From: a bacterium UBP14_UBA6098
GTDB lineage: Bacteria; UBP14; UBA6098
Reading direction: 5' to 3'
Length of the DNA: 64,000 bases
Assembly: GCA_002428525.1 (NCBI GenBank)
Contig: DIWU01000032.1
Span: 1,269-65,268 of the forward strand
Position numbers and translations under genes: made by a program. Positions 6,014 to 33,475 of this stretch are shown here, piece by piece (the stretch's first letter is position 1; each line of letters starts with the position of its first letter). The notes beneath the pieces were generated by a model that searched no databases, was not told where the DNA came from, and saw only the letters and a program-made list of their open reading frames with translations.

Positions 6014-6032
6014 TCTATTATTAGACAATCGC

Positions 6033-7574: not shown

Positions 7575-7624
7575 ATCATCCAGACTCAGTGGCGCGCAGA
7601 ACGAATGCGCTCCGAAGCGCCTTG

Positions 7625-7984: not shown

Positions 7985-8116
7985 TTGGCATTCTCAAACT
8001 ATTCAGTCAGTATTTGAATATACTCTCGATTTATAGCCCTGTAAAGCGCTTTCTGTAAATTCCGTATTCTTTTTGTCTCCATAAGATCCCGCAAACTGAC
8101 ACCCGCGCTCACAAAA

Positions 8117-8236
8117 GGGGGCTTCGGGCGAGCATGCTCGCACCGAAGCGGTCGGCGAACAATCTCGCAAGAACTGAAATCGCCGAGCCGACCGCTTCGG
8201 GCTGATCTGCGTATTCGCAGATCAGCCGAAGCCCCC
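8117..8236. other. highly structured GC-rich intergenic element (nested stems)
   Basis: The outer stem GGGGGCTTCGG (8117-8127) pairs with CCGAAGCCCCC (8226-8236). Inside are the palindrome GCGAGCATGCTCGC (8128-8141), a 14-bp stem (8143-8156 with 8187-8200) and a perfect 11-bp hairpin GCTGATCTGCG-TATT-CGCAGATCAGC (8201-8226). Confidence 0.55.
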
Positions 8237-8288
8237 GAGGCCTCTGCCGGCGCCGGATTTTCAAAATAGGTCGATTAGGTTAAATGAT

Positions 8289-10502: not shown

Positions 10503-10604
10503 ACCGAGCTCTATGTCAAAGCATTTCGATGAACACTCACCGACGGTGCCTCGGGAGATTCTGTTTGAGTTAAGTGAAATAAATCTTTTTAGGGCATATT
10601 GTCT

Positions 10605-10633
10605 TTGACAAATTCGTATTCGAGAGTTATATT
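10605..10633 (+). promoter_or_regulatory. consensus sigma70 promoter TTGACA-17-TATATT for gyrA
   Basis: TTGACA is at 10605-10610, a 17-nt spacer follows, and TATATT is at 10628-10633. A GGAAGG Shine-Dalgarno site and ATG at 10697 follow. Confidence 0.65.
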
Positions 10634-10696
10634 TATTAGATTTTTTCAATCTGAGTTCTGCGAGGTTTTTACCCCGAAATAAATCGGAAGGTCACA

Positions 10697-13174
10697 ATGG
10701 ACGAGAATTATATTGGCGACGTAATGCCGGTCGATATCGAAGATGAGATGCGTAGAAGCTACATCGATTATGCGATGAGCACAATCATCAGCCGCGCCCT
10801 GCCGGATGTCACCGACGGACTGAAACCGGTGCACCGCAGGTGCCTTTATGCCATGTTCGACATGGGAATCCTGCACAACCGCTCCCATGTCAAATCCGCA
10901 AGGCTTGTCGGCGAGGTCATGGGTAAATACCACCCGCATTCGGACTCCGCTATCTACGACACCGTTGTCAGGCTGGCACAGGATTTCCGAATGAGATACC
11001 CGCTCGTCGATGGGCAGGGCAATTTCGGCTCGATCGACGGCGACCCCGCGGCCGCCACGCGATATACCGAGGTTCGCATGGCGAGGATCGCAGAGGAGCT
11101 TCTTCAAGATATCGACAAAGAGACGGTCGATTTCGTCCCAAACTACGACAACTCGCTTACAGAGCCCATGCTCCTTCCCGCGAGATTCCCTAACTTCCTC
11201 GTTAACGGCAGTTCCGGCATCGCGGTAGGCATGGCCACCAATGTTCCGCCTCACAACCTTGTCGAGGTATGCGATGCTGTAATCCATCTCGTCGATCATC
11301 CGGACGCCACGATCAAAGACCTCATGCAATTCGTCCTCGGGCCGGATTTCCCGACCGGCGGAGTTATACTCGGGACCAGAGGGATCAGGGAGGCCTACGA
11401 AACAGGCAGAGGCTCTATAGTCATGCGAGCGCGAGCCTTCATCGAGCCGGTTCACAAGGGCACCAAAGAGGCGATTATCGTCAACGAGATCCCCTATATG
11501 GTCAATAAATCGACACTCATCGAGCAGATCGCAGATCTTGTCAAGGATAAAAAAATCGAATCGATCTCGGATATTCGCGACGAATCCGACCGCGAGGGAA
11601 TGCGTATCTATATCGAACTCAAACGCGGCGAGAATGCGCAAGTCGTTCTCAATAAACTCTTTAAGATGACACGCCTCACCGAGAACTTCGGTGTCATTAT
11701 GCTCGCTATCGACAAAGGCGTGCCGAAAGAAATGAACCTAAAAGAGGTGCTTAAGGCCTATGTCGAGCATCGCCGACAGGTTATCATAAGAAGAACGATC
11801 TTCGATCTGCGCAAAGCGAAAGAACGCGCTCATATATTGAAGGGGCTCGCTATCGCCCTTCAAAATATCGATTTGGTTGTCAAGATAATAAAAGAGTCCA
11901 GAACCGTCGGAGAAGCCTCCGAAACGCTACAGGCTAAGCTCGGCCTATCGGAGATTCAGGCCAAGGCCATCCTCGATATGCGGCTCGCGCGCCTCACCGG
12001 CCTCGAGCGCGACAAGATTATCTCCGAGCTCGAGGATATTTTGAAGCTCATCGAGTATTTGCAGGGCATCCTCGACGACGAGACCAAGGTCATGGACTTG
12101 ATCAAAGCGGATATGGCCGACATCAAAGAAAAATTCGGCGACAAGCGCCGGACCCAGATCGTTCCGAACTTCGAGGAGATGTCCGCCGAGGATTTCATCG
12201 TCGATGAGGAGGTCGTCGTCAGTGTGACGCACCGGGGTTATATCAAACGCACCCCGACGAGTATCTATCGCCAACAACACCGCGGCGGAAAGGGCATTCA
12301 GGCAATGGGCACCCGCGACGAGGATTTCGTCGAAAAGCTCTTCACCGCAACAAACCACGACACTATACTTCTCTTCAGCTCGAGCGGAAAGGCTTATTCG
12401 CTCAAGGTTTACGAGATCCCCGAGGCCTCGAGGACAGCCCGCGGCATGGCGATCGTCAATCTGATCGGCCTCGCCGGCGGCGACAGCATCGCGAGCTGTT
12501 GCAAAATTCGGGACTATGAGGAAGAAAAGGATATTATCTTCGCGACTGCAAAGGGCAAGGTTAAACGGACATGCCTGTCCGAATATGTCAACGCCAAGAA
12601 AACCGGCGTCATCGCGATAAATGTCAACGACGGCGACCGCCTTATCTCGGCGGAGCTGGTCGATGAGCCGGATCGCGAGATTCTGCTCTTCACCCGCGAG
12701 GGTATGTGTATTCGCTTCAATGTCGAAGAAGTCCGCCAGATGGGCCGTTCCGCTCAGGGGGTCATCGGAATCGGTCTTCGAGATAAGGACGAGCTTGTCG
12801 CGATGATCGCCCTCACGCCCGAGGGCAAGATCCTCACCGCGACCGAGAAGGGCTATAGCAAACGTAGCAATCTCGAGGAATACCGCCAACAACACCGCGG
12901 CGGTGTCGGCATTATAGGCCATAAGATCACTCCGAAAACCGGCGGGGTCGTTGCGGCACTTCAGGTAAACGAGGACGAGGAGATTATCGTCATCACCTCC
13001 GAGGGAGTCCTGCTACGCACCACTGTCTCGAGCATCAGCGAATACGGCCGATCGACGCAGGGCGTCAAGCTCATGCGCGTGCCGGCCGGACACGCAATCT
13101 CGGGGGTTGCCAGAGTGATGGACAACGACGAGGAACCGGCCGATGAGACCGATCAAACCGAGTTGGATGTTTAA
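10697..13174 (+). CDS. gyrA: DNA gyrase subunit A
   Basis: SYIDYAMS...[16 protein letters not shown] and the active-site Tyr region are present, with C-terminal beta-pinwheel repeats. The protein is 825 aa. Confidence 0.95.
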
Positions 13175-15281: not shown

Positions 15282-16238
15282 ATGAGTGTAAAAGTAATAT
15301 CTGAGCTTCTTCAGGCCGAATCGGCCGCAATCGCAAACCTCGTCGGAAAAATCGAGGGGCAGATAGTAAGCGCCGCAGACCTCTGCAGTTCATGCTCCGG
15401 TCGCATAATCGTAATGGGCCTCGGCAAAAGCGGCCTCGTCGGCCGCAAGATCGCCTCAACTCTGGCCTCGACTGGAACATCGAGTGTCTTTATCCACGCC
15501 GCTGAGGCGCTCCACGGCGATTTGGGCATGATAACCGATCGCGACTGCGCAATACTTATATCGAAAAGCGGTTGCACGCCCGAAACACTGATGCTGATCC
15601 CGCCGTTAAAGCGTTTGGGCGTGAAAATAATTGTCATCACCGGGAATCCGGCCTCGCCGGCGGCCAAAGAGGCCGATGTAGTCCTCGATATAGGCGTTTC
15701 AACCGAGGCCGAACCGATAGGCGTCGTCCCGACGACCTCGACTACTGTGACTATGGCCATCGGCGATGCGCTCGCTATCGCGCTTATGACGCGAAAGGGT
15801 TTCTCGAAGTCCGATTTCGCCCAGATACATCCGGCCGGCAACCTCGGAAGCCTTTTGAAGCGAGTCTCAGAGGTGATGCACACTGGGAATGCAATTCCAC
15901 AGGTGCCGCCATCGGCCTCGACCATGGAGGGGATATTAGAAATGAGCGAAAAGCGCCTCGGGCATGTTTTAGTGGTCAAAGAAGGGAAACTGCTCGGGAT
16001 CTTCTCCGACGGCGACCTGCGAAGAGCGCTTCAAGCGCATCCTAACGAGGACATCACCTCGCTTTCGATAACCGCCCTCGCCACAGCCGGACCTAAAACA
16101 ATCGACGCCGGTGCTCTCGTCGAGGAGGCGGTCCGGACAATGGAGACGAAGAAGATCACAGCATTGCCCGTGCTTTCGGACGGTCTTCTCGTCGGAATAG
16201 TGCATCTTCATGATATTTTATCTGCGAGGGCCGTTTAG
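15282..16238 (+). CDS. kdsD: KpsF/GutQ-family arabinose-5-phosphate isomerase (SIS + tandem CBS)
   Basis: The SIS domain (GLGKSGLVGRKIASTLASTG) is followed by two CBS domains. Confidence 0.85.
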   Translation: MSVKVISELLQAESAAIANLVGKIEGQIVSAADLCSSCSGRIIVMGLGKSGLVGRKIASTLASTGTSSVFIHAAEALHGDLGMITDRDCAILISKSGCTPETLMLIPPLKRLGVKIIVITGNPASPAAKEADVVLDIGVSTEAEPIGVVPTTSTTVTMAIGDALAIALMTRKGFSKSDFAQIHPAGNLGSLLKRVSEVMHTGNAIPQVPPSASTMEGILEMSEKRLGHVLVVKEGKLLGIFSDGDLRRALQAHPNEDITSLSITALATAGPKTIDAGALVEEAVRTMETKKITALPVLSDGLLVGIVHLHDILSARAV

Positions 16239-16241
16239 GCG

Positions 16242-17690
16242 ATGTCCCTCAAGCGCGATCTGATACGCGATACGGCCCTTTACGGCCTCGGCGATATTCT
16301 CACAAAGGCTATCGCTTTCCTGCTTATACCCCTCTATACGAACTCCCTCGTGCCGGAGGAATACGGTATCTACCAGTTGGTCGTCCTGTATGTCACAGTC
16401 GCGATGGTTTTCTCTCTGAGCGGTATGAATGTCGCATTGTTCAAGCATTTTGTCGTCACACCGGAGGAGGGGAAGCGGCGAGAGCTTTTTACGATTACTG
16501 TTTTGTGGGTGTTTTTAAGCTCGGCGCTGATAATCGGTCTTTCGATGCTTCTTTCCGGGCCGCTTTCGGAGCTTGTGGCCGGCAATACCGGCCGAAGAGA
16601 TATCGTCGGGCTCGCGGCGCTCAGTTCCGGCCTCGACACGCTTTTACTCGTGCTCCTTTTGATCTTTCGCATGGAAAAACGCCCGATCGGCTATATAACC
16701 TTTTCCCTGATAAAGATTGTCGTTATTTTGGCCGGCAATTATTTTCTGGTTTGGAAGATGGGCATGGGCGTCGTCGGGATATTGATCGCGGGGATAATCG
16801 CGAATCTTGTTATCCTGATTCCGCTTTTGATCAAGGTCGGTAACTACTTCATCTGGCCGGTTTCGAGAAAGCTATTCATTGAGCTCCTTGTATGGGGAAT
16901 CCCGTTCATCCCTTCATCGCTGTCTTCGGTGATCTTGACGCTTTCCGACAGGCTCGTTCTTCGTTATATGGCGGGTTTCGACTCGGCGGGGATTTATTCG
17001 GTGGGCTATAAGATCGGCGGTGCGGTTTTACTTCTATATACAGCTTTCAGGTTCGCGTGGGGGCCGTATATGTTCGAGCTTGCGAAGGATATCGAAACCG
17101 CCCGAAAGACCTACCCGAGGGTTTTAAATGTGCTTATTGCACTGCTCGGGTTGGCGGCGCTCGGGCTGGTCGGCTTTTCGAGCGAGATCTTCCGGTTTTT
17201 CGTTGGAGAGCTTTATTATTCGGCGCGTGCGGTGCTGATCCCAATATCGCTGTCCGTTCTCTTCGACGCCTCCTCGCTGTTCTTCGGCGCGGCACTCCAG
17301 ACGCGCGATAGGACAATCTATATCCCCGTGGTCACCGGTCTTGCGGCTGTCTCGAATATCCTGCTGAATATACTGCTCATCCCGAAATACGGTTTCATGG
17401 GCGCGGCTTGGGCGACACTCGCTTCCTATATCGCCTTGGCCTATATGAACTTCCGTGTTGCGAACCCCTTCATGCCGGTGAAATACGATTGGCTTAAGCT
17501 GACCTCGATAGTCGCCTCGGTGTCCGGCGGGATGGCGCTTATGTGGTTCGTGGAATCCTTTGTTTTAAGGATAGTATTATTTATTGGAGTCAGTGTGATA
17601 GTTTTCTTTATCTCCTGTGAAAACCCTAAAAACTTTGTTAATAGTATTTACCGCTCGTCGAATATGTATCATCGGCGATGCTCTAAATAA
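16242..17690 (+). CDS. Wzx-like polysaccharide flippase (MOP/PST family), core-GC copy
   Basis: The protein is 482 aa with about 12-14 predicted TM helices and a typical PST-family N-terminus. Confidence 0.7.
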   Translation: MSLKRDLIRDTALYGLGDILTKAIAFLLIPLYTNSLVPEEYGIYQLVVLYVTVAMVFSLSGMNVALFKHFVVTPEEGKRRELFTITVLWVFLSSALIIGLSMLLSGPLSELVAGNTGRRDIVGLAALSSGLDTLLLVLLLIFRMEKRPIGYITFSLIKIVVILAGNYFLVWKMGMGVVGILIAGIIANLVILIPLLIKVGNYFIWPVSRKLFIELLVWGIPFIPSSLSSVILTLSDRLVLRYMAGFDSAGIYSVGYKIGGAVLLLYTAFRFAWGPYMFELAKDIETARKTYPRVLNVLIALLGLAALGLVGFSSEIFRFFVGELYYSARAVLIPISLSVLFDASSLFFGAALQTRDRTIYIPVVTGLAAVSNILLNILLIPKYGFMGAAWATLASYIALAYMNFRVANPFMPVKYDWLKLTSIVASVSGGMALMWFVESFVLRIVLFIGVSVIVFFISCENPKNFVNSIYRSSNMYHRRCSK

Positions 17691-17725
17691 CAATATTCAG
17701 ACTCAAATACAGCAGACTTGAACAA

Positions 17726-19222
17726 ATGATGAATGACAACAACTACATTCAACAAAATGGGCAATTATCCCGATCTGTAGTTTCTGGTGGTATATGGATT
17801 ACATTATCTAAGATATTACAACATAGTTTAAATTTCATTAGGACAATAACACTTGCTCGTTTGCTCTCTCCAGACAACTTCGGCCTTTTCGGCATAGCAA
17901 TGCTCGCGCTTACAGCAATAGATAAATTTTCTTTCACTGGTTTCGATCAAGCACTGATTCAGAAAAGAGAGAATATTGAGCCTTATCTCGATTCTGCATG
18001 GACTATTCAGGTTATTCGCGGTTTAATCTTAGGATTATTATTGTTTTGCACAGCACCTCTTGTCGCGAAATTCTTCCATGAACCGCAGGTTACATTACTA
18101 TTAAAAGTTCTGGGCTTTTCAATTTTCATTGGAGGTTTCAGAAACATAGGTATCGTGTTTTTCCATAAGAATATCCAGTTCAATAGAATGTTTATATATG
18201 AATTAAGTGGTACAATAACTGATTTTGGAGTCGCGCTAACTGCCGCCATTATATTGCGTAACGCATGGGCGCTAGTCTTTGGTTTCACGGCAAGGAATAT
18301 TGTCCAAACAATTGTTTCGTATGTCATCCATCAATATAAACCGCGCTTTAAAATTAATTGGAAGCATACAAAGGACCTCTTGAGTTTCGGCCAATGGATT
18401 TGGGGTAGCACGATACTGATATTTCTGCTAACTCAAGGAGACGATATTTTAGTTGGAAAGATACTTGGAACAACAGCGTTAGGGTTTTACCAAATGGGAT
18501 ATAAAATCTCGAACCTTCCAGCTACAGAGATTACTCATGCCCTTTCGCAAGTGATTTTCCCAGCCTATTCAAGACTGCAGGACAATATTCCAAAGCTTAG
18601 AGCCGCTTTCTTGAGAGTTTTCCAAATGATGACATTTATCACCTTTCCAATTGCGATACTGATATTCGTCCTCGCGCCAGATTTTACTATTGTTTTTCTC
18701 GGCGAAAAATGGATGCCTATGGTGCCGGTGATGAAAACACTATGCTATTTTGCTGTTATTAGGACGATTAATTCTGTGTTTTCAGCTGTGTTAACTGCAT
18801 TGGGCAAGCCGCGTATTTCAACGATAGGATCGTTTTTCCAATTGATATTATTCGTAATAATTGTGTATCCATTGATAATAAACTTCGGACTAGTTGGTGT
18901 AGCTTATGCCACTATTATCCCGAATGCTTTCTTCCTGATATATATCGGCATCAGGCTACTGAAAGAAATTGACACACAGTTTTCAAAGCTGTTGAGTGTT
19001 ATCCTTCCATCGATTGCGGGATGTCTATCAACTTATTTATCTGTAACCTTTGTGAATAATACGTTTTCTTTTAATGCCTCTGTGATCTCCATTATTTCAC
19101 TCGCTATTTTAGGGGGTGGAGTATATATTGTTGTTGTTTATTTGTCGGATATTCTAACAAAGGGAAGTCTTACTAATAGTGTTAAACAGATTCTTTTATA
19201 TAAACGAGCGGATTTATTATGA
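17726..19222 (+). CDS. Wzx-like polysaccharide flippase (MOP/PST family), low-GC copy
   Basis: The protein is 498 aa, multi-TM and AT-rich. Its stop overlaps the next start (ATGA). Confidence 0.7.
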   Translation: MMNDNNYIQQNGQLSRSVVSGGIWITLSKILQHSLNFIRTITLARLLSPDNFGLFGIAMLALTAIDKFSFTGFDQALIQKRENIEPYLDSAWTIQVIRGLILGLLLFCTAPLVAKFFHEPQVTLLLKVLGFSIFIGGFRNIGIVFFHKNIQFNRMFIYELSGTITDFGVALTAAIILRNAWALVFGFTARNIVQTIVSYVIHQYKPRFKINWKHTKDLLSFGQWIWGSTILIFLLTQGDDILVGKILGTTALGFYQMGYKISNLPATEITHALSQVIFPAYSRLQDNIPKLRAAFLRVFQMMTFITFPIAILIFVLAPDFTIVFLGEKWMPMVPVMKTLCYFAVIRTINSVFSAVLTALGKPRISTIGSFFQLILFVIIVYPLIINFGLVGVAYATIIPNAFFLIYIGIRLLKEIDTQFSKLLSVILPSIAGCLSTYLSVTFVNNTFSFNASVISIISLAILGGGVYIVVVYLSDILTKGSLTNSVKQILLYKRADLL

Positions 19223-19902
19223 GCGATGAACTAAATAAATTCAACGAAGCATATACCGGTAACAGGCCGGATGTCCAACAATTGATTCCCGATAATGTTC
19301 AGAGGGTTCTGGATTGTGGTTGTAGTGTAGGCGCTCTCGGGGAAGAGATCGCAAAAAGGCCTAATAAACCCGAGGTCTGCGGGATAGAATTAGACGAACA
19401 AACTGCACAAATCGCTAAGAGTAAGTTAGATCGTGTCATTATCGGAAATCTCGACACGATCGATTTCGCGGAACACTTCCAAAAGGGATACTTCGATTGT
19501 ATAATATTCTCCGATGTGCTCGAACATACACAAGACCCATGGGGTATTCTAAAGAATGCAATGCCTTTTCTAAACAACGATGGTTTCGTGATAATCAGTA
19601 TTCCAAATATTCGTCACTACACCACGATATGCAATCTAATCTTTCGCGATTATTGGCCATATAGAGAAAGAGGTCTTCACGATAAAACACACCTAAGGTT
19701 CTTCACGCTTAAAAGTATTAAAGAACTATGTGAAAATGCCGGCCTCCAAATCCAAAGATTGGAACGCAATTATCGGATCTACGAAAGGCCACATTATAGG
19801 AACAGGTTCGCGAAATACTTAGCCATCCCGTTCTTGCGCGGTTTTCTTGTTTTCCAGTATCTCATTGTCGCAAAAAAAAGAGGGCCGCATGGCGGGGAAT
19901 AG
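19219..19902 (+). CDS. class I SAM-dependent methyltransferase
   Basis: Motif I is VLDCGCSVG and motif II is DCIIFSDVLEH. Confidence 0.75.
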   Translation: MSDELNKFNEAYTGNRPDVQQLIPDNVQRVLDCGCSVGALGEEIAKRPNKPEVCGIELDEQTAQIAKSKLDRVIIGNLDTIDFAEHFQKGYFDCIIFSDVLEHTQDPWGILKNAMPFLNNDGFVIISIPNIRHYTTICNLIFRDYWPYRERGLHDKTHLRFFTLKSIKELCENAGLQIQRLERNYRIYERPHYRNRFAKYLAIPFLRGFLVFQYLIVAKKRGPHGGE

Positions 19903-20956
19903 AAAAACTACAATGAGACTTAAAATATCCTCATACTTGAGGAGAATAGCATCTAAAGAAAAAAATTCATTTTCGGAGAAGCTCGCACTTTTTGCACGAG
20001 CTATTTATTTGAAGCTAAAAAGTGTGTATAAAGCTATCATGCTGTCAATGTCGAAAAGTAACTCAAAAATGGTCTCAAGGCTTTACCTGAAGCAAAGAAG
20101 TTTCATGAGAGCCAAGCTTGAAGGGCGCTATTCTTTCGTCACAATCGACGAACTCGTTCTGTGGACGATGGATTGGATTAAAACCAACAAAATCGACCAC
20201 GACATTATTGTCGGAATACCGCGGAGCGGATTATTAGTCGCTAATATACTGGCATTAAAACTTGGGAAACCTTTATCTACGCCGGAGCTTTTCGTGCAAG
20301 GTTCCCTCTGGAATAGCAAGTATATTGAATTAACCGAAAACATTAAGAGTGTTCTATTGGTCGATGACACAGTTAGTTCGGGTAAAACTCTGGATGATAA
20401 TCTGCAAGTTATACTCCCCTATTGCGAAAAACGAGGAATTTCGATTACCAAAGCGGCTCTTATCGTTACCGACGAAGCGCTTTCTTCAGTGGATGCTTTC
20501 TATAAGATCCTTCCTCAACCGAGGCTATTCGAATGGAACTTGATGCACTCCAAAAAGGGGATTATTTGTTCGGATATGGACGGCGTTATATGTGAAAATT
20601 GTCCTCCCGGCGTGGATGCCGATGAAGACCGGTATCTCGAGTGGCTCGATAATGCAAAGCCATATATGATACCTGCTTTTGAAATCGATGTTATTGTTTC
20701 GGGGCGTCTGGAAAAGTATCGGGAGCAAACAGAACATTGGCTCAAAAAATATAAAGTCCGATATAAAGAGCTTTGCCTTTGGGATTTGGAATCCAAAGAA
20801 CTAAGATTAGGCAATTATGTTAAACATAAAATCGATGTAATCTTGAAGACAAAGCCGGATATGGTATTCGAAAGCGAGCATAACCAAGCTGAAGAGATAT
20901 GGAAAGCTACTCATGTCACTACAATATGCACTGACGATATGATTATCTTCTCATAA
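19889..20956 (+). CDS. fusion of an N-terminal type I phosphoribosyltransferase domain and a C-terminal HAD-like phosphatase domain
   Basis: The PRPP-binding motif is VLLVDDTVSSGKTL (PRTase). HAD motif I is SDMDGV, with a downstream S/T and Lys. The start is uncertain (19889 or 19913) and the tool ORF is over-extended. Confidence 0.6.
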   Translation: MAGNRKTTMRLKISSYLRRIASKEKNSFSEKLALFARAIYLKLKSVYKAIMLSMSKSNSKMVSRLYLKQRSFMRAKLEGRYSFVTIDELVLWTMDWIKTNKIDHDIIVGIPRSGLLVANILALKLGKPLSTPELFVQGSLWNSKYIELTENIKSVLLVDDTVSSGKTLDDNLQVILPYCEKRGISITKAALIVTDEALSSVDAFYKILPQPRLFEWNLMHSKKGIICSDMDGVICENCPPGVDADEDRYLEWLDNAKPYMIPAFEIDVIVSGRLEKYREQTEHWLKKYKVRYKELCLWDLESKELRLGNYVKHKIDVILKTKPDMVFESEHNQAEEIWKATHVTTICTDDMIIFS

Positions 20957-21171
20957 TACATTCAAAGAAGAGGATATATTGCAAATTCGTCTGACAAGCT
21001 TGATAATCCATGGGTTAATAATCGACAAAGAACACTTCGAGAAATAGAGTGAGTATTCTTTGAGAATCTTCAGAAACATAAATAAACTTGGCCAAAAACC
21101 CCATAATCAGCTTAAGTTCTGTAGATATCCATACGACATCTCTTCCATAATCAAAGAGGTGTATATTTGAT

Positions 21172-22293
21172 ATGAAGATACTCTTTACCACAGGAAGGAT
21201 ACATCAAATCGGAGGCGGTGCTGAAAGATCGGCGACGACTCTCATAAGAAAACTATCTGAAAAGCATCATGTATGTGTGTTCAATATAGTATTTGAACCA
21301 CAGCCTGAAAAGAATCCAGGGCTTATAGGAAGCAACATCGAGATAATCGACTGGAATTTCCCCATAAAGACAAAGAAAACTCTTAGAATGCCATATCACG
21401 CCAGATTACTCTCCTGCGATATTCAAGCACAGAGGGAACTTAACAAGATAGCGAGAAACTTCCAGCCGGAAATTGTAATAGCTCAGAAACCTCCTGTGGT
21501 ATATGAAGATCCTATTCCGAGCAATAAAGCACCAATCATCACATTTGTTAGAGATACGGAGTATTTAGACCCATTCAACATAGAACATAAGTGTTTTATT
21601 CATTACAACACCCTATTTATGAAATTAAGGCAAAAAAGGATGCTAAAATTATTGAAAAAAAGTAACTTGCTTATTGTCGCAAGTGATTTTATGCGGGAGA
21701 AGCTCAATGGATTCGGCTTGTCCGCTGAGGTCGTTCCACCCTTTATTGAATTTGAAAAATATGCCTCTAACCCTGCGGGTGATAGAGATTCCATTACAAT
21801 GATAGCCGCAAATCTTGCAAAACATAAAGGGGTAGATATCTTTTTGCGTATTGCTGAGAAGTGTCCCGATTTGAAGTTTCTGTTGGTAGGGCGTTTGCCA
21901 GAAGAGCATGGAGATTTGCCTTCCAATGTTGTCCATTTGAGATGGACAGACGATATCAAGTCGATACTTGCGAAAACGATGCTTCTTCTTGTTCCGTCCC
22001 GCTGGGAAGAACCTTTTGGTAGATTGCCGGTAGAGGCGGGAGTTAACGGCATTCCCTCTATTGCAAGCAACAGAGGAGGGCTGGTCGAAGCCGTTGGAGA
22101 AGGAGGTATATTGATTCAAAATTACGAGGATATCGACCTTTGGGTTGAGGCAATTACAAGTGTTCTCAATAATTCTGCTATATATAACTCTCTGTCAAAA
22201 AACGCTATAGAGAATGCTAATCGTTTTGAATTTTGCTATTCTTATGCTAAATTTACATCTTTGGTAAAAGAGTATTTTGGGATTGAGCTGTGA
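21172..22293 (+). CDS. GT4-family glycosyltransferase (GT-B, retaining)
   Basis: The EX7E motif is EPFGRLPVEAGVNGIPSIAS. The gene is AT-rich. Confidence 0.8.
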   Translation: MKILFTTGRIHQIGGGAERSATTLIRKLSEKHHVCVFNIVFEPQPEKNPGLIGSNIEIIDWNFPIKTKKTLRMPYHARLLSCDIQAQRELNKIARNFQPEIVIAQKPPVVYEDPIPSNKAPIITFVRDTEYLDPFNIEHKCFIHYNTLFMKLRQKRMLKLLKKSNLLIVASDFMREKLNGFGLSAEVVPPFIEFEKYASNPAGDRDSITMIAANLAKHKGVDIFLRIAEKCPDLKFLLVGRLPEEHGDLPSNVVHLRWTDDIKSILAKTMLLLVPSRWEEPFGRLPVEAGVNGIPSIASNRGGLVEAVGEGGILIQNYEDIDLWVEAITSVLNNSAIYNSLSKNAIENANRFEFCYSYAKFTSLVKEYFGIEL

Positions 22294-22384
22294 AATCGGC
22301 CGCAGTTTATTCCCTTTGGTTTTTGTCGTTTATTAAGTCCATTAAAACAGTAATGAATACATCTTGTATTTCAAGGCGGAGTTC

Positions 22385-23494
22385 ATGAGAATAGCAATCG
22401 ACATTTCTACATTGTGTAGATCGCGGACTGGCGTAGCACTATTCACATATTATACATTGCGTGAGCTTACACTTATTGATAATTCCAATACGTACTTTCT
22501 CTATGTTAATAAGGCCGTTTCCCTCGATTTCCCTCTGCCGCCGAACTTCTTCATCCGCCCGACGCAGATCCCCTTGCCGCAGTTCCAGCTGTGGTTTCAC
22601 ATCGGCCTGCCGATGTTTTTGCGAAGTGATAAAATCGACATCTTCCACGGGACGAATTTCCTCATCCCGCCTTTCCCCGGGTGCAAGACGGTCTCGACGG
22701 TTCACGACCTTTCGAGCCTTGTTATGCCATCACAACATAAGACTTTTCATCGAATCTCTCACGGCCTTTTCCTCAAAAACTCTATGCGCAGAGCGGATGC
22801 GATTATCGCAGTCAGCGAGTTCACGCGGAGCGAGATTTCCCGCCTCTTTCCCGAAATGTCTGATAAGACTGTCGTTATTCACGAGGCAGTATCGCCGGAA
22901 TTTCGGGCAATAGAAGATGTCGCCCTATTGCGCAATATCAGCGAAAAACACGGCCTCCCCGAACGCTTCATTCTCTTCGTCGGCACGCTGGAGCCGAGGA
23001 AAAACATCGAGGGCCTCATGCGAGCGTTCGCTGGAATCAAGGGCCAAATTCCCCATAAACTCGTTATCGTCGGCGGAAGGGGTTGGAAGTTCTCCGGAAT
23101 ATTCGATCTGGTGAAAAGGCTCGATATCGAGGATGATATAATTTTCACCGATTATGTCCTCGCAGGGGATCTCCCGGTGATATACAACCTCGCTGATATT
23201 TTCTGCTATCCATCTTTTTACGAGGGCTTCGGACTGCCGGTGCTCGAGGCGATGGCCTGTGGAACTCCGGTGTTGACCTCTAATGTCAGCTCCTTGCCGG
23301 AGGTCGCCGGGAATGCGGCCCTACTATTCGACCCCCGTTCACCGGAGGATATCGCGGAGAGGATAATTCAGCTGGCCAATAACGAGACCCTCCGCGCGGA
23401 GCTTTCCAAAGCGGGCCTTCGACGCGCGTCCGAATTCTCTTGGGCGGATACCGCGAAAAAAACACTCGAGACCTACCGCCGCGCCCTCGAATAA
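22385..23494 (+). CDS. GT4-family glycosyltransferase
   Basis: EGFGLPVLEAMACGTPVLTS is present. The start is ATG 22385 after AAGGCGGAG. The first ~40 codons are AT-rich and the rest is GC-rich. Confidence 0.8.
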   Translation: MRIAIDISTLCRSRTGVALFTYYTLRELTLIDNSNTYFLYVNKAVSLDFPLPPNFFIRPTQIPLPQFQLWFHIGLPMFLRSDKIDIFHGTNFLIPPFPGCKTVSTVHDLSSLVMPSQHKTFHRISHGLFLKNSMRRADAIIAVSEFTRSEISRLFPEMSDKTVVIHEAVSPEFRAIEDVALLRNISEKHGLPERFILFVGTLEPRKNIEGLMRAFAGIKGQIPHKLVIVGGRGWKFSGIFDLVKRLDIEDDIIFTDYVLAGDLPVIYNLADIFCYPSFYEGFGLPVLEAMACGTPVLTSNVSSLPEVAGNAALLFDPRSPEDIAERIIQLANNETLRAELSKAGLRRASEFSWADTAKKTLETYRRALE

Positions 23495-23576: not shown

Positions 23577-24587
23577 ATGAAAAAAGCCCTTATAACCGGC
23601 ATTACCGGACAGGACGGCTCCTATCTCGCCGATTTTCTTCTCGAAAAGAGATACAGCGTTTACGGCATGATCCGGCGTAATTCCACGGAAAACCTCGGGC
23701 GCATCGAGCATATTAGAGATAGAATACAGCTTGTTCAAGCGGATCTTCTCGACCAGATGTCGATAATGAAACTTATTCGCGAGATACAGCCCGACGAAAT
23801 ATATAATCTTGCGGCTCAGTCCTTCGTCCCGACATCGTGGAGCCAGCCGCTTTACACCGGAGAGGCTACCGCCCTCGGCGTCACGCGCATGCTCGAGGCT
23901 ATGCGTTATGAAAAAAGCGACAGCAAATTCTACCAAGCCTCGTCTTCCGAGATGTTCGGCAAGGTGCTCGAAATGCCCCAAAGCGAGAACACACCGTTCT
24001 ATCCGCGAAGCCCCTACGGCGTCGCCAAGGTTTACGGCCATTTTATTACTGTGAACTATCGCGAAAGCTACGACCTCTTCGCCGCTTCGGGGATTCTTTT
24101 CAACCACGAATCGCCGCGCCGCGGCAAGGAGTTCGTCACGCGCAAGATCACAAACGCGGCGGCAAGAATCAAGTTCGGCCTGCAGGATATTCTCGAGCTG
24201 GGAAACCTCGACGCCAAGCGCGACTGGGGTTTCGCCGGCGATTATGTCCGAATGATCTGGCTTATGCTCCAGCAGGACAGCCCCGACGATTATGTCATCG
24301 GAACCGGTGTCGCCCATTCGGTGCGCGAATTCGCCACACACGCCTTCGAGACCGCCGGCTTCGATATCGCGTGGGAAGGAACCGGTATCGACGAGGTCGG
24401 GTTCGACCGAAAGACCGGCAAGCCCTTGGTGAGGTTGTCCGAGGAGTTCTTCCGCCCGGCCGATGTCAATCACCTTTTGGCGAACCCCTCCAAGGCGAAG
24501 GCCAAACTCGGATGGGAACCGACGGTGAGCTTCGAGGAACTCGTTCGTAAGATGACCGAGGCCGACATCGAAAGCTATCGGAGGTAG
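23577..24587 (+). CDS. gmd: GDP-mannose 4,6-dehydratase
   Basis: [19 protein letters not shown] is present, together with the YGxxK catalytic region. Confidence 0.9.
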
Positions 24588-24590
24588 GGT

Positions 24591-25538
24591 TTGCGTGTTT
24601 TTATAACAGGCATCGAGGGATTCGTCGGCCGACACCTTGTCATGGAGTTGGTCAAAGCCGGCCACGAGGTTTCGGGTTTATACTTCGACAAGATGGATCT
24701 CGATGAAATCGAAGCTTTGGCTGAGAGGCTTTATCGCGGCGATCTTCGCGATAGTGTTTCGTTGAACCAAATCCTCGATTCCGCCCGACCCGATGCGATC
24801 GTCCACCTCGCGGCGATCAGCTTCGTCCCGGCCGCGTCGAGCGATCCGCGAACCGCTTGGGATATCAACCTTGGCGGGACTTTAAACATACTGGAGTGGA
24901 TCAGGGTGGCAAAGCCCGATACACACCTGCTTTTCGTCTCAACCTCCGAGGTTTACGGCCGTTCGGATGGCGGCGACTTGCCCTTCACCGAGGAAACCCC
25001 GCTCAGGCCGGCGAATATGTATTCCGCAACCAAGGCCTCCGCGGATATGGCCGCGGATCAGTATCGAAGCCTCTTCAGTTTGCGAATCGCAACCCTGCGC
25101 CCGGCCAATCATATCGGCCCCGGCCAGTCGGAGAATTTCGTTGTATCGAGTTTTGCCAGACAGGTCGCGGAGGCCGCCTTGGGACTCGGCGATGGAGTTA
25201 TTCGCGTCGGCAACCTCTCCGCGATGCGCGATTTTCTCGATGTCCGCGATGTCGTTCGGGCATATAGGCTCGTTCTCGAACAGCAAATCACCGGCATCTT
25301 CAACCTCGGCTCCGGCAAAGCGGAGCGAATCTCAGATATTTTGGATAGCTTGGTCGAGATCGCCGGTGCGAGGATCTCGGTCGTGGTCGATAAAGAAAGG
25401 CTTCGTCCCGTCGATGTCCCGATTATCTTCATCAGCCGTGAAAAACTTTCGGCCGAATCGGGCTGGACTCCCGAGATTCCGCTGATAAAAACCCTCGAGG
25501 ATACTCTCAAATGCTGGAAAGACAAGCTCCGCAAATAA
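24591..25538 (+). CDS. rmd: GDP-4-dehydro-6-deoxy-D-mannose reductase (GDP-D-rhamnose forming), Rmd-like SDR
   Basis: It has GxxGxxG, and VHLAA...NLGGTLN and RPANHIGPGQSENFVVSSFARQ...RDFLDVRDV closely resemble Pseudomonas Rmd. It sits directly downstream of gmd. Confidence 0.8.
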   Translation: MRVFITGIEGFVGRHLVMELVKAGHEVSGLYFDKMDLDEIEALAERLYRGDLRDSVSLNQILDSARPDAIVHLAAISFVPAASSDPRTAWDINLGGTLNILEWIRVAKPDTHLLFVSTSEVYGRSDGGDLPFTEETPLRPANMYSATKASADMAADQYRSLFSLRIATLRPANHIGPGQSENFVVSSFARQVAEAALGLGDGVIRVGNLSAMRDFLDVRDVVRAYRLVLEQQITGIFNLGSGKAERISDILDSLVEIAGARISVVVDKERLRPVDVPIIFISREKLSAESGWTPEIPLIKTLEDTLKCWKDKLRK

Positions 25539-26701
25539 TTACCGCTCGCGGAACAAAACCGAGAGTCGCGATAGTTCACGATTTTCTCAACCAATCCGGC
25601 GGAGCCGAGGAGGTGCTCCGCGAGATTAAGGGCCTTTTCCCCGAAGCGCCGATTTTCACCCTCGCTTACGACAAGAAGCGCGTCCCGTCGGACTTCAACG
25701 AATGGAAGATCGAACCTTTGGGCTGGTCGAAGCGGCTTCCTAAAATGCACAAATGGTATAAGTATTACATGCCGCTTTACCCCACGATGATCGAGCAGAT
25801 GAACCTTCAGGACTTCGACCTCGTGATCTCGAGTAGCTATCTCGTCGCCCATGGCGTTCTGACGCGAAGCGAGACGGCTCATCTGTCCTATTGCTACACT
25901 CCAATGCGTCAGGCATGGGAGCTGTATTTCGACTACAAACATGATTACACGAAAACCGGCTTCAAACCGAAACGCGACCTATTCAAATTCTTCTATCCGA
26001 TTGTCTTCAACTATGTTCGAATGTGGGACCGCCTCGCCTCCGAAAGGGTTGATTTTTATTCATGCATCTCGGAAACGACAAGGCGAAGGATCGATAAATT
26101 CTACTCGAGAACCGCGGATATTATCTATCCGCCTGTTCACACAGGCAAGTTCAAAGTCAGGCCGAAGAATGAAATTGGCGAATTTTACCTTTGTCTTTCG
26201 CGTCTCGTGCCTTATAAGCGGATCGATATTGCGGTCGAGGCCTTCAGGAAACTCGATCTTCCGCTGATAATCGCGGGTGATGGCGTTCAAATCAACTATT
26301 TGAAGAAGATTGCCGGCCCGAAAACCAAGTTCTTGGGATGGATCGACGAGGCAGAGAAAATCGAGCTTTTAGAAAGTTGCAGGGCCTTAGTTTTCCCCGG
26401 TGTCGAGGATTTCGGGATCGTTCCGGTCGAGGCTCAGGCCGCCGGTCGGCCGGTAATCGCGCTCGGCGAGGGCGGCGCGACCGAAACTGTTATTCCCGAA
26501 CAGACCGGTGTTTTCTTCGAACACCAGTCGGCCGAGTCTTTGCTCGATGCTGTCGAGAGGTTTCAAAGGCTCGACTTCGATCCGGCGATCATCGCAAACT
26601 CGGCTAAGCGTTTCGATACCGCGGTATTCCGCGAAAATTTCAAGCTGTGGGTGGAAAAGAGATTCTCGGAATTCTCAAGAAAAATTCAGGAGGGGAAATG
26701 A
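25511..26701 (+). CDS. GT4-family glycosyltransferase (WbpX/Y/Z-like, possible D-rhamnosyltransferase)
   Basis: It has VAIVHDFL near the N-terminus and VEDFGIVPVEAQAAGRPVIA (EX7E). It lies downstream of gmd-rmd. Confidence 0.7.
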   Translation: MLERQAPQIITARGTKPRVAIVHDFLNQSGGAEEVLREIKGLFPEAPIFTLAYDKKRVPSDFNEWKIEPLGWSKRLPKMHKWYKYYMPLYPTMIEQMNLQDFDLVISSSYLVAHGVLTRSETAHLSYCYTPMRQAWELYFDYKHDYTKTGFKPKRDLFKFFYPIVFNYVRMWDRLASERVDFYSCISETTRRRIDKFYSRTADIIYPPVHTGKFKVRPKNEIGEFYLCLSRLVPYKRIDIAVEAFRKLDLPLIIAGDGVQINYLKKIAGPKTKFLGWIDEAEKIELLESCRALVFPGVEDFGIVPVEAQAAGRPVIALGEGGATETVIPEQTGVFFEHQSAESLLDAVERFQRLDFDPAIIANSAKRFDTAVFRENFKLWVEKRFSEFSRKIQEGK

Positions 26702-29478
26702 AACAAACAGCCATCTTTTTATGCGCAATTTGTATTCTTTTTGCGGAGACATCGCCCGCATCTTTTTCGGGCTTCGAGCCGGAGGCCTCGCCCTTCGATT
26801 CGACGATAACCCCGACATTCTTTTCACTTGTCGCGCTCTCCGATTGGATTCCGGACGGCGGTGCGCAGGTAGTTATTCTGTTTCCGAAAACACCTATCGG
26901 TTACGGCATCGATCCGGGCTGGTCGGGGTCGGCGCGACCGAACATTTTCTGCGAGAGCACTGTCGATATGCCGTTCTTGCAGGATCCGATGACCGGCCTT
27001 CCGATCGAAACTATCGCGAGTTCGGCCTCGATGGGCCTCGCATTGCTTCGGGCCTCTGGAAGCGGCTATTTCAGTATTTCGGCTAAGGACAATCTCGGCC
27101 TTATAAAACCATCGATGCCGCTTCTATTCGAGGTGATCCCATCCGGCACCTCCGCGATCGAATGGCAAATACACGGGCCGAGCCGGATGAATTACCCCGG
27201 CGATTTCTCGATTCATTGGGCCGTCGCGGCGGATTTCGAGGGCAGACCGGTTCCCTCGGCCTTTCCGGGCCTTGTCAGCAGTGTAGTCCGCGTCAGGATC
27301 GCCGGTGAAAGCAGGCCGGACTCGAGCGCCCGCGTCGCTAACGCCTTCGACAGAACACCTGTTTTCGAGGCAAGCCTCACAGGCTTCTACGGCATCTTCC
27401 CGTTTATCATCACAAACGACCAGCCGGAGACAGTCACTGTGGTGGCGGAGGACCTCGCCGGAACATTAGCCGGTAGCGATACCTTCGAGGTAGTCTTCTT
27501 GCCGGGGGACGATCCCGCCAACCTGCTGATCTTCCCCGCCAACGGCATCCGAGTAGCCCGGAATACTAACGCCGGCCTCGTTGCGATGGCCTTTTCGAAC
27601 GGCTTTCCCGATCCGGTGAACTACTCGACGCGCGTCCGGATCAGCTCTGTCGATCTTTCGGGCGCTCCGAGCGTCTCGATCACGCCCTCGGGATGGCAAA
27701 CCCTGATCGGCGGGGTCGCAGGCTTCACATTCAGGGACACCGAGGCCGACACAAACTGGGTCTTTTTCCGCGCTGATATCGATTCCACGCCGCTCCTATT
27801 CGCCCCGATCAAAACACCGATTCAGGTCGTTCCCGAAGAAACAGCGATCAAGCTCGATATCGAATGCCCGAGCGTTGGCTTTCCCTTGGACTCGATCCCG
27901 CTAATAGTCTCGGCCCTGAACTCGCGCGGCGAGATTGACAACGATTGCGCGGGCTGGTTTATCCTCGACCTCCAATGCGAAGGGCCCGGAGCAATTTCGA
28001 TAATCGATTCGCTCAGCGGTGAGGTTTTTTCGCCCTCGGAACTCGCCTCGCGAGGGATCCAGCTCAATGCAGGTCGGCGGGTTTTCACTATTTACGAAGA
28101 CTCGGGGGCAACCATCGAGATTCAGCTCTCAGCCTCGGATGCCGAAATCGTCGGGCTTTTCGACAACGGCATGCTTCTTCCCGGCGCTACTGAAAACCTC
28201 TCCATCGGGATGCCGGACACCGGCGCTGTGGCCTACTCCTTCGTCACACCTTCAGAGGAGTATTTCCGCACGGGCGAGGAATTGATCATCACCGTCACCG
28301 CGCGAACCGGCATGACCTCGCTAATCGACCGTAGCTATTACGGAAGCGCGTCGATATCGGTCACCGGCGGCGCCTTCACCGTTCCCTCAGACGGCATCAT
28401 CGATTTTCACGGCGGAATCGCGACCTTCGCGCTGATCGACACAGTCTCCGAGGCGGTCGATATCGAGGTTAGCGGCCCGCTTTTCCCCGACACGCTAAGG
28501 GTTCGCTTCGTCCGCACCGGGGTTATGGCCTATTCGCAGGATTACAACTGGATTCCCCTCGGTGCGCAGAGAAATATGCGCATGGCGATTTTCAACGAGA
28601 CCTTCATCGCCACCGAATTCTGCGGCCCCGCCACGATCTCGGCCATCGAGCCGGATGGCGATGCGAGCGCGGTATTTCCAACCACCGTCGATTTCGTCTC
28701 GGGGATCGGGTTTTTCCCGCTTTCGAACTCCGATGCCGAGATAGTGACAGTCTTTGTCGATGGCGGCCCCGATGTCGGTTCCACGAGTTTTATCCTCGAA
28801 AGCCGTGCGCGGGTGAATTTCTCTTTGCCCCCGGTCACTCAGGTCGCCGCGGCCTTAGATACAATCCTCTTCGAGCTGACCGATTTTTACGGCGCGCATT
28901 ACTCCGCCGATTGCACAATCACAATCGATATCTCGGAGCAATTCGAAAACACCTCCGTTTCTTACGAAAACACGCTTGTCTTCGAGGATGGCAGTGCGGT
29001 TTTCACTCTCGAAAACTCCGAACCCGAATCGATATGGCTTCATGTTAGAATCCCCGAAGGACAGCTTCTCTATATGGATTCCGAGGAAATAGCCGATTGG
29101 GAATACTATATCGGCGCCCTCGATTATGTCGTCTGCGATATCGAGGAGACCGATCTTCCGCGAACGATCTCGCTCAGCGCTCATCCGAACCCATTCAACT
29201 CCGCGGTCAAGATCGTTCTCGATTCACCAAGCGGCCTCGATGCCTCGAGCTTGGAGATGGAAATCTTCGATATCGCGGGGCGGATCGTCGCCCGCACGGG
29301 CACCGAAGACCCGGTTGGCAACCCCTCAAACGAATTAAGCCGGAATACAAAGAGCGCTTCGACGGCTCATGAGTTCATATGGCACCCCGGAGAGTCCCAC
29401 GGTTCGGGCGTTTATTTCGTTCGAGTATCCTTACCGACTGGCGTTCCGATGACTATTAAGGCGGTTTATTTGAAATGA
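26698..29478 (+). CDS. large secreted protein (927 aa) with T9SS type-A C-terminal sorting domain, function unknown
   Basis: The signal peptide is MKQTAIFLCAICILFA. The C-terminus reads HPNPFNSAVKIVL...EIFDIAGRIV...SGVYFVRV...KAVYLK. The start overlaps the GT4 stop (ATGA). Confidence 0.6.
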   Translation: MKQTAIFLCAICILFAETSPASFSGFEPEASPFDSTITPTFFSLVALSDWIPDGGAQVVILFPKTPIGYGIDPGWSGSARPNIFCESTVDMPFLQDPMTGLPIETIASSASMGLALLRASGSGYFSISAKDNLGLIKPSMPLLFEVIPSGTSAIEWQIHGPSRMNYPGDFSIHWAVAADFEGRPVPSAFPGLVSSVVRVRIAGESRPDSSARVANAFDRTPVFEASLTGFYGIFPFIITNDQPETVTVVAEDLAGTLAGSDTFEVVFLPGDDPANLLIFPANGIRVARNTNAGLVAMAFSNGFPDPVNYSTRVRISSVDLSGAPSVSITPSGWQTLIGGVAGFTFRDTEADTNWVFFRADIDSTPLLFAPIKTPIQVVPEETAIKLDIECPSVGFPLDSIPLIVSALNSRGEIDNDCAGWFILDLQCEGPGAISIIDSLSGEVFSPSELASRGIQLNAGRRVFTIYEDSGATIEIQLSASDAEIVGLFDNGMLLPGATENLSIGMPDTGAVAYSFVTPSEEYFRTGEELIITVTARTGMTSLIDRSYYGSASISVTGGAFTVPSDGIIDFHGGIATFALIDTVSEAVDIEVSGPLFPDTLRVRFVRTGVMAYSQDYNWIPLGAQRNMRMAIFNETFIATEFCGPATISAIEPDGDASAVFPTTVDFVSGIGFFPLSNSDAEIVTVFVDGGPDVGSTSFILESRARVNFSLPPVTQVAAALDTILFELTDFYGAHYSADCTITIDISEQFENTSVSYENTLVFEDGSAVFTLENSEPESIWLHVRIPEGQLLYMDSEEIADWEYYIGALDYVVCDIEETDLPRTISLSAHPNPFNSAVKIVLDSPSGLDASSLEMEIFDIAGRIVARTGTEDPVGNPSNELSRNTKSASTAHEFIWHPGESHGSGVYFVRVSLPTGVPMTIKAVYLK

Positions 29479-32371: not shown

Positions 32372-32479
32372 ATTATTATTATTGTTATTCATAGTATTCA
32401 TTATGTAATATTACTCTTTAAACATTTAACCGCATCATTAAAGCATTTGTCAATAATTAGTATTATATCATAAAGGAGT

Positions 32480-33475
32480 ATGATGAGAGATATAAATATC
32501 GATAGAATACTATCGCTTCATACGAAAGCACCGCTAGTCGATCTTCACGCGGATACCTTCTCGATGTCGAAAGATTCGCCTCGTTTCGTCGAGGGATCGT
32601 TCGAAACCAAGCTCGATCTCCCTCGGATGTTCGAGGTAGGGCTTTGGGCGGAGGCCTTCAGCCTCTTTGTATATCCTAAATGGGGTGACGAAATCCCCGA
32701 AAAATGGCGCGAAATAGCGCATAAACAACTTATCGGGATAGAAAGTGCAATAGCGAGTTCCGGCGGAAAGCTCCGTCTTGCGAGGAACTCGACCGAGCTT
32801 CTCGAAAACCGCAATAACGGGGCAGTTAGCGCGATAATAGAGGTAGAGGGTTTACATTCCCTTTGCGGCAACCTCGAAGATATTAACATGCTTTTCAATC
32901 GCGGAGTCCGTATTTTTACTCTTACTTGGAACAACTCAAACGATTGGGCGACCTCGTGTATGGATCCCTCGGCTAACTCCAAGGGGCTCACAGCTTTAGG
33001 AGAAGAGGCAGTGCGCAAAATCGACGCTCTCGGCGGACTGATCGATTTTTCTCATTCAGGTGAAAAAACATTCTGGGAAACAATGAGTATCATCAGGAAA
33101 CCACCGATTTGCACCCATTCGTGTTGCATGTCCCTTCAAACCTCGCCGAGGAACCTCACCGACGAACAAATTTGCGCAATCATAGACAAACAAGGCATCA
33201 TCGGTGTTAATTTCTATCCCGGATTTCTCTCCCCTAAGGACAAATCCGAGGTCACTTCGGCGGATATCGTCGATCATATCGAGCACATAGTTTCGCTCGG
33301 CGGTGAAGAAAATGTCGGCCTCGGCTCGGATTTCGACGGCGTCAGTTACCTGCCGACAGACATCTCCGACTGTCACGGGCTTGTCAATATCACTCGAGAA
33401 ATGATCATTCGCGGCTTCGACGAAGAAACCTTGCTTAGGGTTTTAGGAGGAAATTTTCTTAGAGTATTTCAATAG
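32480..33475 (+). CDS. membrane dipeptidase (peptidase family M19)
   Basis: DLHADT, FTLTWN and HSGEK are M19 signatures. Confidence 0.8.
   Translation: MMRDINIDRILSLHTKAPLVDLHADTFSMSKDSPRFVEGSFETKLDLPRMFEVGLWAEAFSLFVYPKWGDEIPEKWREIAHKQLIGIESAIASSGGKLRLARNSTELLENRNNGAVSAIIEVEGLHSLCGNLEDINMLFNRGVRIFTLTWNNSNDWATSCMDPSANSKGLTALGEEAVRKIDALGGLIDFSHSGEKTFWETMSIIRKPPICTHSCCMSLQTSPRNLTDEQICAIIDKQGIIGVNFYPGFLSPKDKSEVTSADIVDHIEHIVSLGGEENVGLGSDFDGVSYLPTDISDCHGLVNITREMIIRGFDEETLLRVLGGNFLRVFQ

Follow-up and report, generated by a model that had tools for sequence, protein, structure and literature searches.

The stretch of DNA analysed here, a window of 64,000 nucleotides from contig DIWU01000032.1 (assembly GCA_002428525.1) of the uncultured bacterium UBP14_UBA6098, contains a surface-glycan locus whose middle part, from about 17554 to 22513, is markedly poorer in guanine and cytosine (GC) than its surroundings. 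This low-GC island carries the genes of a flippase (flip2), a methyltransferase (MTase), a phosphoribosyltransferase joined to a HAD-type phosphatase (PRT-HAD) and a GT4 glycosyltransferase (GT4a). It begins within the end of another flippase gene, flip1, and ends within the start of another GT4 gene, GT4b. We consider it likely that the island is an acquired allele of a variable cassette, which replaced its predecessor by homologous recombination in the conserved flanking genes. Such a horizontal replacement had been proposed in a preliminary description of the sequence, and both the composition of the block and the corresponding slots of related genomes now support it.

Between 17691 and 22500 the GC content is 0.391, as compared to 0.532 in the remaining window, so that the low-GC island which the preliminary description had placed at about 17.7-22.5 kb is indeed present, though the flanks have a GC content of 51-56% rather than the approximately 57% given there. 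In a sliding GC profile, the window shows a single trough that spans several genes, from about 17.6 to 22.5 kb, and the lowest-GC 4.8-kb segment of all 64 kb begins at 17600. The GC content at third codon positions (GC3) is 0.36-0.44 in the island genes, as opposed to 0.59-0.71 in host genes and to 0.53-0.71 over 29 other genes that were tested. The anomaly of the block exceeds mere base composition: its GC-normalised dinucleotide distance (delta*) is 0.151, whereas host windows of the same size have 0.035 +/- 0.0125 with a maximum of 0.072, and its correlation in tetranucleotide z-scores (TETRA) is 0.495 versus 0.689 +/- 0.042 for the host. Windowed statistics, which had been suggested as a check, hence reveal that the usage of codons (GC3) and of oligonucleotides (delta*, TETRA) is not uniform.

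The edges of the block are sharp and lie inside genes. A maximum-likelihood search for change points placed the left edge at 17554 (2-lnL support 17531-17572; log-likelihood ratio (LLR) 37.2), where GC falls from 0.53 to 0.37, and the right edge at 22513 (support 22504-22538; LLR 24.8), where it rises from 0.39 to 0.54. Host segments of equal size, used as a control, gave a mean LLR of 7.1 (sd 5.3), and the rare high values among them all came from short AT-rich intergenic spacers. (Apart from the two edges, GC changes sharply only at the spacers at 32350-32480, 33476-33790 and 61271-61595, which have a GC content of about 0.19-0.25.) The left edge is 137 nt before the flip1 stop codon and approximately 172 nt upstream of the start of flip2 at 17726; the drop thus does not occur exactly at the flip2 start, as had first been thought, but inside the last ~45 codons of flip1. 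The right edge, 43 codons into GT4b (22385-23494), agrees with the earlier placement at roughly 120 nt into this gene.

Both junction genes therefore have one end that deviates in composition from the rest. The last 45 codons of flip1 have a GC3 of 0.36, while in 43 other host genes the corresponding codons have 0.61 +/- 0.065, and the homologous tail codons in relatives range from 0.43 to 0.68. This tail, which would be derived from the donor, still encodes the terminal hydrophobic transmembrane helix. Compared with flip1 of the relatives L008 and L009, it is 13-17% identical, whereas the upstream part of the protein is 58-59% identical; the tail of flip1 from another relative, L013, is 34% identical to that of L008/L009.

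On the right side, the first 43 codons of GT4b have a GC3 of 0.33, as compared to 0.58 +/- 0.10 in other host genes. Residues 1-43 are 67% identical to P0002, the closest homologue, and residues 44-129 are 87% identical to it; at the nucleotide level, identity to the corresponding gene on contig L010 is 58-70% up to codon ~41 and 73-85% thereafter. There, GC3 in the window also changes abruptly, from 0.30-0.45 to 0.75-1.0; no such dip is seen in L008, L010, L011 and L018. The AT-rich head of GT4b is thus presumably a donor segment as well, and since residues 1-43 align well with homologues, the donor would have possessed a homologous GT4b. A general codon effect at the 5' end of genes was considered for GT4b and rejected, because only two other open reading frames (ORFs) in the window start in a comparably AT-rich fashion, and these two are probably over-extended calls of TTG starts.

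The history of GT4b may be more complex than a single crossover. Over residues 44-129, a part of the acceptor-side N-domain, its identity amounts to 87% with P0002/L010 but to only 52% with the L013 lineage, although the latter is otherwise the closer one; in the C-terminal domain, the two are related to it to about the same degree. This pattern in the protein alignments suggests that GT4b is a mosaic past the island junction, with earlier recombination events within the gene.

To compare the locus between genomes, we recovered relatives through the contexts of GT4b homologues and through a genome scan with a flip1 alignment. At least eight family-level relatives keep the flanks of the window, that is, gyrA-lactB-CxxC-nadE-kpsF-flip1 on the left and GT4b-GT396-big protein-pdxA on the right, with amino acid identities of 36-76% (GT396 being the next GT4-type glycosyltransferase). 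Both flanks are syntenic in L008, L009, L013, L015, L018 and L019, and the left flank is also present in L014, L016, L017 and L061. The closest relative, L014 (Candidatus Zixiibacteriota), has 76% identity in flip1 and 75% in kpsF; across the family relatives, flip1 is 54-76% identical, and kpsF is syntenic and 58-75% identical in L008, L009, L013-L019 and L061. Orthologues of GT4b (45-68% identical) occupy the same place before the GT396 orthologue in L008, L009, L010, L013, L015, L018 and L019, and GT396 is 63-73% identical and syntenic in every relative that has the right flank. The earlier assumption that kpsF, gmd and rmd are all conserved thus proved correct for kpsF, but not for the other two: outside the window, gmd and the rmd-like gene were found in no lineage but the closest syntenic one, L013/L015 (87% and 70% identity), and the pair is absent between GT4b and the next glycosyltransferase in L008, L009, L018 and L019. 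They therefore represent a second insertion or deletion in the locus rather than a universal flank.

In contrast to the flanks, the content of the slot between flip1 and GT4b varies, and no single cassette is common to all relatives; at least six content types exist among the relatives and the window. The window has flip2-MT-PRT/HAD-GT4 (MT, methyltransferase; GT, glycosyltransferase), L013/L015 have flip2-MT'-GT4-GT, and L008/L009/L018 have flip2-MT-GT4-GT2. L016 carries flip2-FkbM MTase-GT4-GT2-364 aa-GT2-GT4, and L019 has flip2-FrhB/pyruvyltransferase fusion-GT4-414 aa. L017 carries a 504-aa Epimerase_2-like gene directly after flip1, and L014/L060/L061 have AT-rich non-coding DNA only. Judged by gene content, the slot is truly a site of variable cassettes, as had been proposed. 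The tandem of flip1 and flip2 occurs in L008, L009, L013, L015, L016, L018 and L019, so to judge from its distribution the family inherited both flippases from its ancestor, with flip2 as the usual first gene of the slot. It follows that the island would have replaced a resident second flippase and added none, contrary to the preliminary description, in which it had brought its own flippase to stand beside a native one.

Some of these slots have peculiarities of their own. The fusion in L019 (13026-15434, 802 aa) joins a domain like the F420-hydrogenase beta subunit (FrhB) to a polysaccharide pyruvyl transferase. In L014 (5798-6416), as well as in L060 and L061 (flip1 74-76% identical), about 600 nt of AT-rich non-coding DNA after flip1 are followed by an unrelated ORF, and there is no second flippase or glycosyltransferase gene after flip1. 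L061 harbors a flip2-like gene (41% identical) approximately 6 kb upstream, on the opposite strand and in another low-GC patch.

The island genes differ among themselves in where their closest homologues are found. The donor search covered a database of 5.8 billion proteins and a metagenome scan. For flip2, the best non-self homologue is in the L013 lineage (61%), followed by a plateau of 46-57% across many phyla, while for flip1 no homologue above ~30% was found outside the family. The MTase is 60% identical to MTases of L058, a contig with 35.5% GC, and L059, a metagenome-assembled genome (MAG) of Omnitrophota, and 25-26% identical to the slot MTases of L013, L008 and L009. PRT-HAD has its best homologues (48-56%) on low-GC contigs, and an orthologue was found in no relative's slot. 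GT4a is 52% identical to a slot gene of L013/L015 and 44% to a gene of L006; a metagenome scan with GT4a recovered no relative. By these protein comparisons, MTase and PRT-HAD are clearly incongruent with the phylogeny of the host family, whereas flip2 and GT4a may go back to an older slot of low GC held in common with the L013 lineage.

Several of our observations weigh against the acquisition of the island as a cassette, or at least complicate it. The donor search revealed no close donor, the non-self maxima being 61% for flip2, 60% for MTase, 55-56% for PRT-HAD and 52% for GT4a, and partial vertical descent would fit flip2 and GT4a, which have their nearest homologues in the L013 lineage. 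The tail of flip1 is weakly conserved in all pairwise comparisons (34-42%), such that the protein-level evidence for a chimera on the left side is weak and the case there is mostly compositional. Furthermore, the slot has a lower GC content than its flanks in relatives as well (0.33-0.45 in L013/L015; 0.42-0.49 in L008, L009 and L018), the GC3 deficit in L013 is similar in depth to that of the island, and the L013 slot has the island's dinucleotide signature (delta* 0.061). In L059, too, the glycan locus at 4500-12500 that contains the homologous genes has a GC content of 0.30-0.35, as compared to 0.44-0.49 in its flanks. AT-richness may thus partly be a lasting property of the cassette genes and not a donor footprint alone. 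Because the dip recurs in relatives and in Omnitrophota, low GC does not simply mean "recent", and the event cannot be dated from it; the idea that the island is younger than the slots of the relatives was dropped, since the deficit in L013 is equally deep. Lastly, the contigs of the window's own species (L001-L005, exact matches) represent one strain from one sample series, and a degenerate DNA scan for a flip1 motif beside the left junction found two contigs of the L014 lineage only and no further strain of this species.

The recurrent low GC and the dinucleotide signature of the L013 slot could be accommodated if the slot were ancient and vertically inherited, having been AT-rich since the family ancestor through selection or mutation bias (e.g., low expression or translational throttling) on flippase and glycosyltransferase genes, and having changed by divergence in place along with small gains and losses of genes. 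It would explain the dip, which every syntenic relative has in this slot and which recurs with the homologous genes in an Omnitrophota host that is unrelated, and also why flip2 identity roughly follows relatedness (61% to L013, 53% to L016 and 46-48% to more distant relatives), and it is of note that the low GC of wzx and wzy has been said in the literature to need explanation (PMC3715488). However, an ancient slot does not account for edges that lie inside genes rather than at gene borders, nor for AT-rich ends of flip1 and GT4b that are specific to the window. Likewise, MTase and PRT-HAD lack an orthologue in the relatives' slots, yet have homologues of 48-60% identity in other phyla. The notion that the genes are AT-rich because they encode membrane proteins had to be rejected, because flip1, a polytopic membrane protein of the same operon, has a host-like GC3 of 0.64, and the soluble island enzymes are as AT-rich as flip2. 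We therefore regard an ancient vertical slot as improbable.

Two further explanations would make the block an insertion or an artifact. Its foreign composition over 5 kb and its sharp edges might be expected of a site-specific mobile element (a genomic island, an integrative and conjugative element or a phage remnant) inserted between two genes of the flippase region, but all five ORFs belong to glycan biosynthesis. In agreement with the preliminary description, no integrase, transposase or recombinase domain was detected by Pfam and NCBIfam in any island ORF. The sole tRNA of the window, at 98-169, is not near the island, and the direct and inverted repeats flanking the island are short and at chance level. 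Moreover, both junction genes run on in frame with homologous sequence, which argues for replacement and not insertion, and the same slot holds other glycan genes in relatives, so that a mobile element is very unlikely. As for a chimera of the metagenome assembly, in which a low-GC contig was joined to a higher-GC genome at short shared sequences, it must be considered that the window stems from metagenome assemblies and that one contig of the species, L004, starts inside the island, at 20505. However, five assemblies (from ENA, JGI and three from Logan, based on at least three read sets of separate runs) are 99.98-100% identical through both junctions, which speaks strongly against an assembly chimera at these points; in addition, the junctions are in frame, the proteins are full-length, and the gene order fits the flip1-flip2-MT-GTs-GT4b of the relatives. 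An artifact of this kind is thus the least probable of the explanations considered here. L004 (SRR943315_883) begins within the PRT-HAD gene, a break that could stem either from poor read coverage where the DNA is AT-rich or from differences between strains in the cassette.

Under cassette replacement, the segment from about 17554 to 22513 would be a horizontally gained allele of the variable middle cassette in a Wzx-type surface-glycan locus (lipopolysaccharide (LPS) or O-glycan-like). It would have entered by homologous recombination with a low-GC donor whose locus had a similar layout, one crossover falling into the last ~45 codons of flip1 and the other ~43 codons into GT4b. Because both crossovers would lie within conserved genes, flip1 and GT4b would remain in-frame chimeras. 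The import would have displaced the previous content of the slot and brought along a cassette-matched Wzx flippase, a methyltransferase, a fusion of a phosphoribosyltransferase of the type using phosphoribosyl pyrophosphate (PRPP) with a HAD phosphatase, and a GT4 enzyme. These genes would be expected to alter the lipid-linked glycan unit and at the same time to supply a flippase fitted to it; the change might consist in a methylated, possibly ribofuranosylated decoration plus one hexose.

Searches with Pfam and NCBIfam confirmed the gene order of the locus, which is CxxCxxCC protein, NadE, KpsF/KdsD, flip1, flip2, Methyltransf_23 MTase, PRT protein, GT4a, GT4b, Gmd, Rmd-like reductase and a further glycosyltransferase. 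They are also in accord with the gene calls made beforehand (two MOP flippases, MTase, PRT-HAD, two GT4 enzymes, kpsF and gmd), the call of PRT-HAD being supported by its two motifs. The coordinates are compiled in the table.

Table. Features of the glycan locus, with positions in the window
Feature	Position	Strand	Evidence
kpsF/kdsD-type arabinose-5-phosphate isomerase, left flank	15282..16238	+	TIGR00393 298.8 bits (cut-off 203.7); GC3 0.63
Flippase 1 (flip1), MOP/Polysacc_synt family, whole gene	16242..17690	+	PF01943 76.5 bits; GC3 0.64
flip1 codons 1-437, host composition, family-specific core gene	16242..17553	+	GC3 0.68
Left junction	17531..17572	.	GC change-point support interval, best 17554
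flip1 AT-rich 3' tail, codons 438-482, in frame	17554..17690	+	GC3 0.36
Flippase 2 (flip2), Wzx/WzxC-like MOP flippase	17726..19222	+	PF13440 284.2 bits (cut-off 23), PF01943 117 bits
SAM-dependent methyltransferase (Methyltransf_23)	19219..19902	+	PF13489 74 bits
PRT-HAD enzyme, type-I phosphoribosyltransferase and HAD-type phosphatase domains	19889..20956	+	Motifs VLLVDDTVSSGKT, DMDGV
215-nt AT-rich intergenic gap within island	20957..21171	.	Sequence read
GT4a, GT4 glycosyltransferase, last complete island gene	21172..22293	+	PF00534 70.6 bits, PF13439 39.6 bits; GC3 0.385
GT4b 5' end, codons 1-43, AT-rich, in frame	22385..22512	+	GC3 0.33
Right junction	22504..22538	.	GC change-point support interval, best 22513
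GT4b codons 44-369, host composition, first gene of conserved right flank	22513..23494	+	PF00534 138 bits
gmd (GDP-mannose 4,6-dehydratase) and rmd-like reductase, host composition	23577..25538	+	TIGR01472 469 bits
GT396, GT4-type glycosyltransferase, right flank	25511..26701	+	PF00534 89 bits

Within the island, flip2 (GC 0.375, GC3 0.36) scores 233 bits against the NCBIfam equivalog PRK10459, which is under the cut-off of 273; on its domain matches it thus classifies as a member of the MOP flippase family and not as a WzxC equivalog. Its stop codon overlaps the start of the MTase gene by 4 nt. The gap between PRT-HAD and GT4a may serve as an internal promoter, or two sub-blocks may have been joined there. 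It contains four sigma-70-like consensus hits, which is no more than AT-rich DNA yields by chance, and the scan for promoters and terminators gave nothing above chance.

PRT-HAD has three basic N-terminal helices, a type-I phosphoribosyltransferase domain with the canonical PRPP motif, and a HAD-type phosphatase domain with the HAD motif. Proteins in which these two domains are fused form a family of approximately 338 aa, with 411 hits at E<1e-10. In the window, in L058 (5871-8966) and in L059 (5859-9017), flippase, MTase and PRT-HAD are encoded in the same tightly packed triplet, which recurs in distant lineages of low GC, Omnitrophota among them, with identities of 48-60%; in one database protein, P0127 (730 aa), flippase and MTase are even fused. 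From the logic of its domains, PRT-HAD is predicted to transfer ribose-5-phosphate from PRPP to a glycan, followed by dephosphorylation. It could be speculated, though we regard this as doubtful, that flippase, MTase and PRT-HAD constitute an uncharacterised decoration module that moves between phyla, is AT-rich everywhere, and installs a (possibly methylated) ribofuranosyl from PRPP by means of a canonical purine-phosphoribosyltransferase fold. If this were true, glycan ribofuranosylation would have evolved a second time, independently of the known gPRT-PRP enzymes, and the window would capture the insertion of the module into a conserved LPS or O-glycan locus. As a candidate new route to sugar decorations derived from PRPP, the module is the part of the island most worth following up.

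In this context, the closest known counterparts are the dual-domain ribofuranosyltransferases of the gPRT plus PRP type (T. composti 7SHG, Klebsiella O4/O7, Hib Bcs3 and C. jejuni Cj1432), in which ribose-5-phosphate is transferred from PRPP and the 5-phosphate is then removed (PMC11231755, PMC12096443). Like them, PRT-HAD pairs a phosphoribosyl-transfer domain with a HAD-type phosphatase and is encoded in a glycan locus, the phosphatase being fused to a PRPP-using transferase. However, its fold is not homologous to the gPRT glycosyltransferase fold of the T. composti enzyme, and an assignment to the 7SHG (gPRT) family was therefore rejected.

The island as a whole resembles the O-antigen (rfb) clusters of enterobacteria. 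In Salmonella, the wzx, wzy and glycosyltransferase genes of such clusters have 28-37% GC in a genome of 51-52% GC, the genes that the clusters share contain well-demarcated junctions, and wzx varies together with the genes specific for the sugars (PMC3715488). As in the galactose-initiated serogroups of Salmonella (PMC3715488), the locus in the window has a low-GC middle of wzx and glycosyltransferase genes (39% versus 53%) between conserved flanks, with junctions in shared genes, a wzx gene that changes along with the sugar-specific ones and, presumably, homologous recombination without mobility genes. It differs in that the host is an uncultured, Zixibacteria-like member of the FCB group, in that neither wzy nor wzz can be seen in the slot, and in that the left flank is a second, conserved MOP flippase. 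Furthermore, the variation documented here is between genera and species, not between strains within a species. The K-loci of Klebsiella and other Enterobacterales and the pneumococcal cps locus (PMC7305143) likewise have clustered sugar-specific genes between conserved ones, an arrangement that favours swaps by homologous recombination, and kpsF is a conserved flanking gene here as in those systems. Unlike there, no Wza/Wzc or KpsMT export machinery was seen beside the slot, which in the window is flanked by kpsF and a flippase on the left and a GT4 gene on the right.

The island is thus a fresh instance of a textbook pattern in an unusual host and would not surprise a specialist. It would mean that the cassette-swapping logic of pathogens, in which a flippase is transferred along with a variable middle of low GC, the flanks are conserved and crossovers fall in shared genes, operates in an uncultured candidate-phylum lineage as well. 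The mapped hot spot (flip1, slot and GT4b) can moreover be used for typing the surface-glycan diversity of Zixibacteria-like MAGs.

Beyond the slot, a conserved protein of 926 aa without a Pfam match is encoded directly after the glycosyltransferases, at 26698-29478. Its orthologues in L008 and L009 (913 aa, 37-38% identical) bear a Por_Secre_tail domain, which serves in sorting to the type IX secretion system (T9SS) and hints at a link between the glycan locus and type IX secretion cargo.

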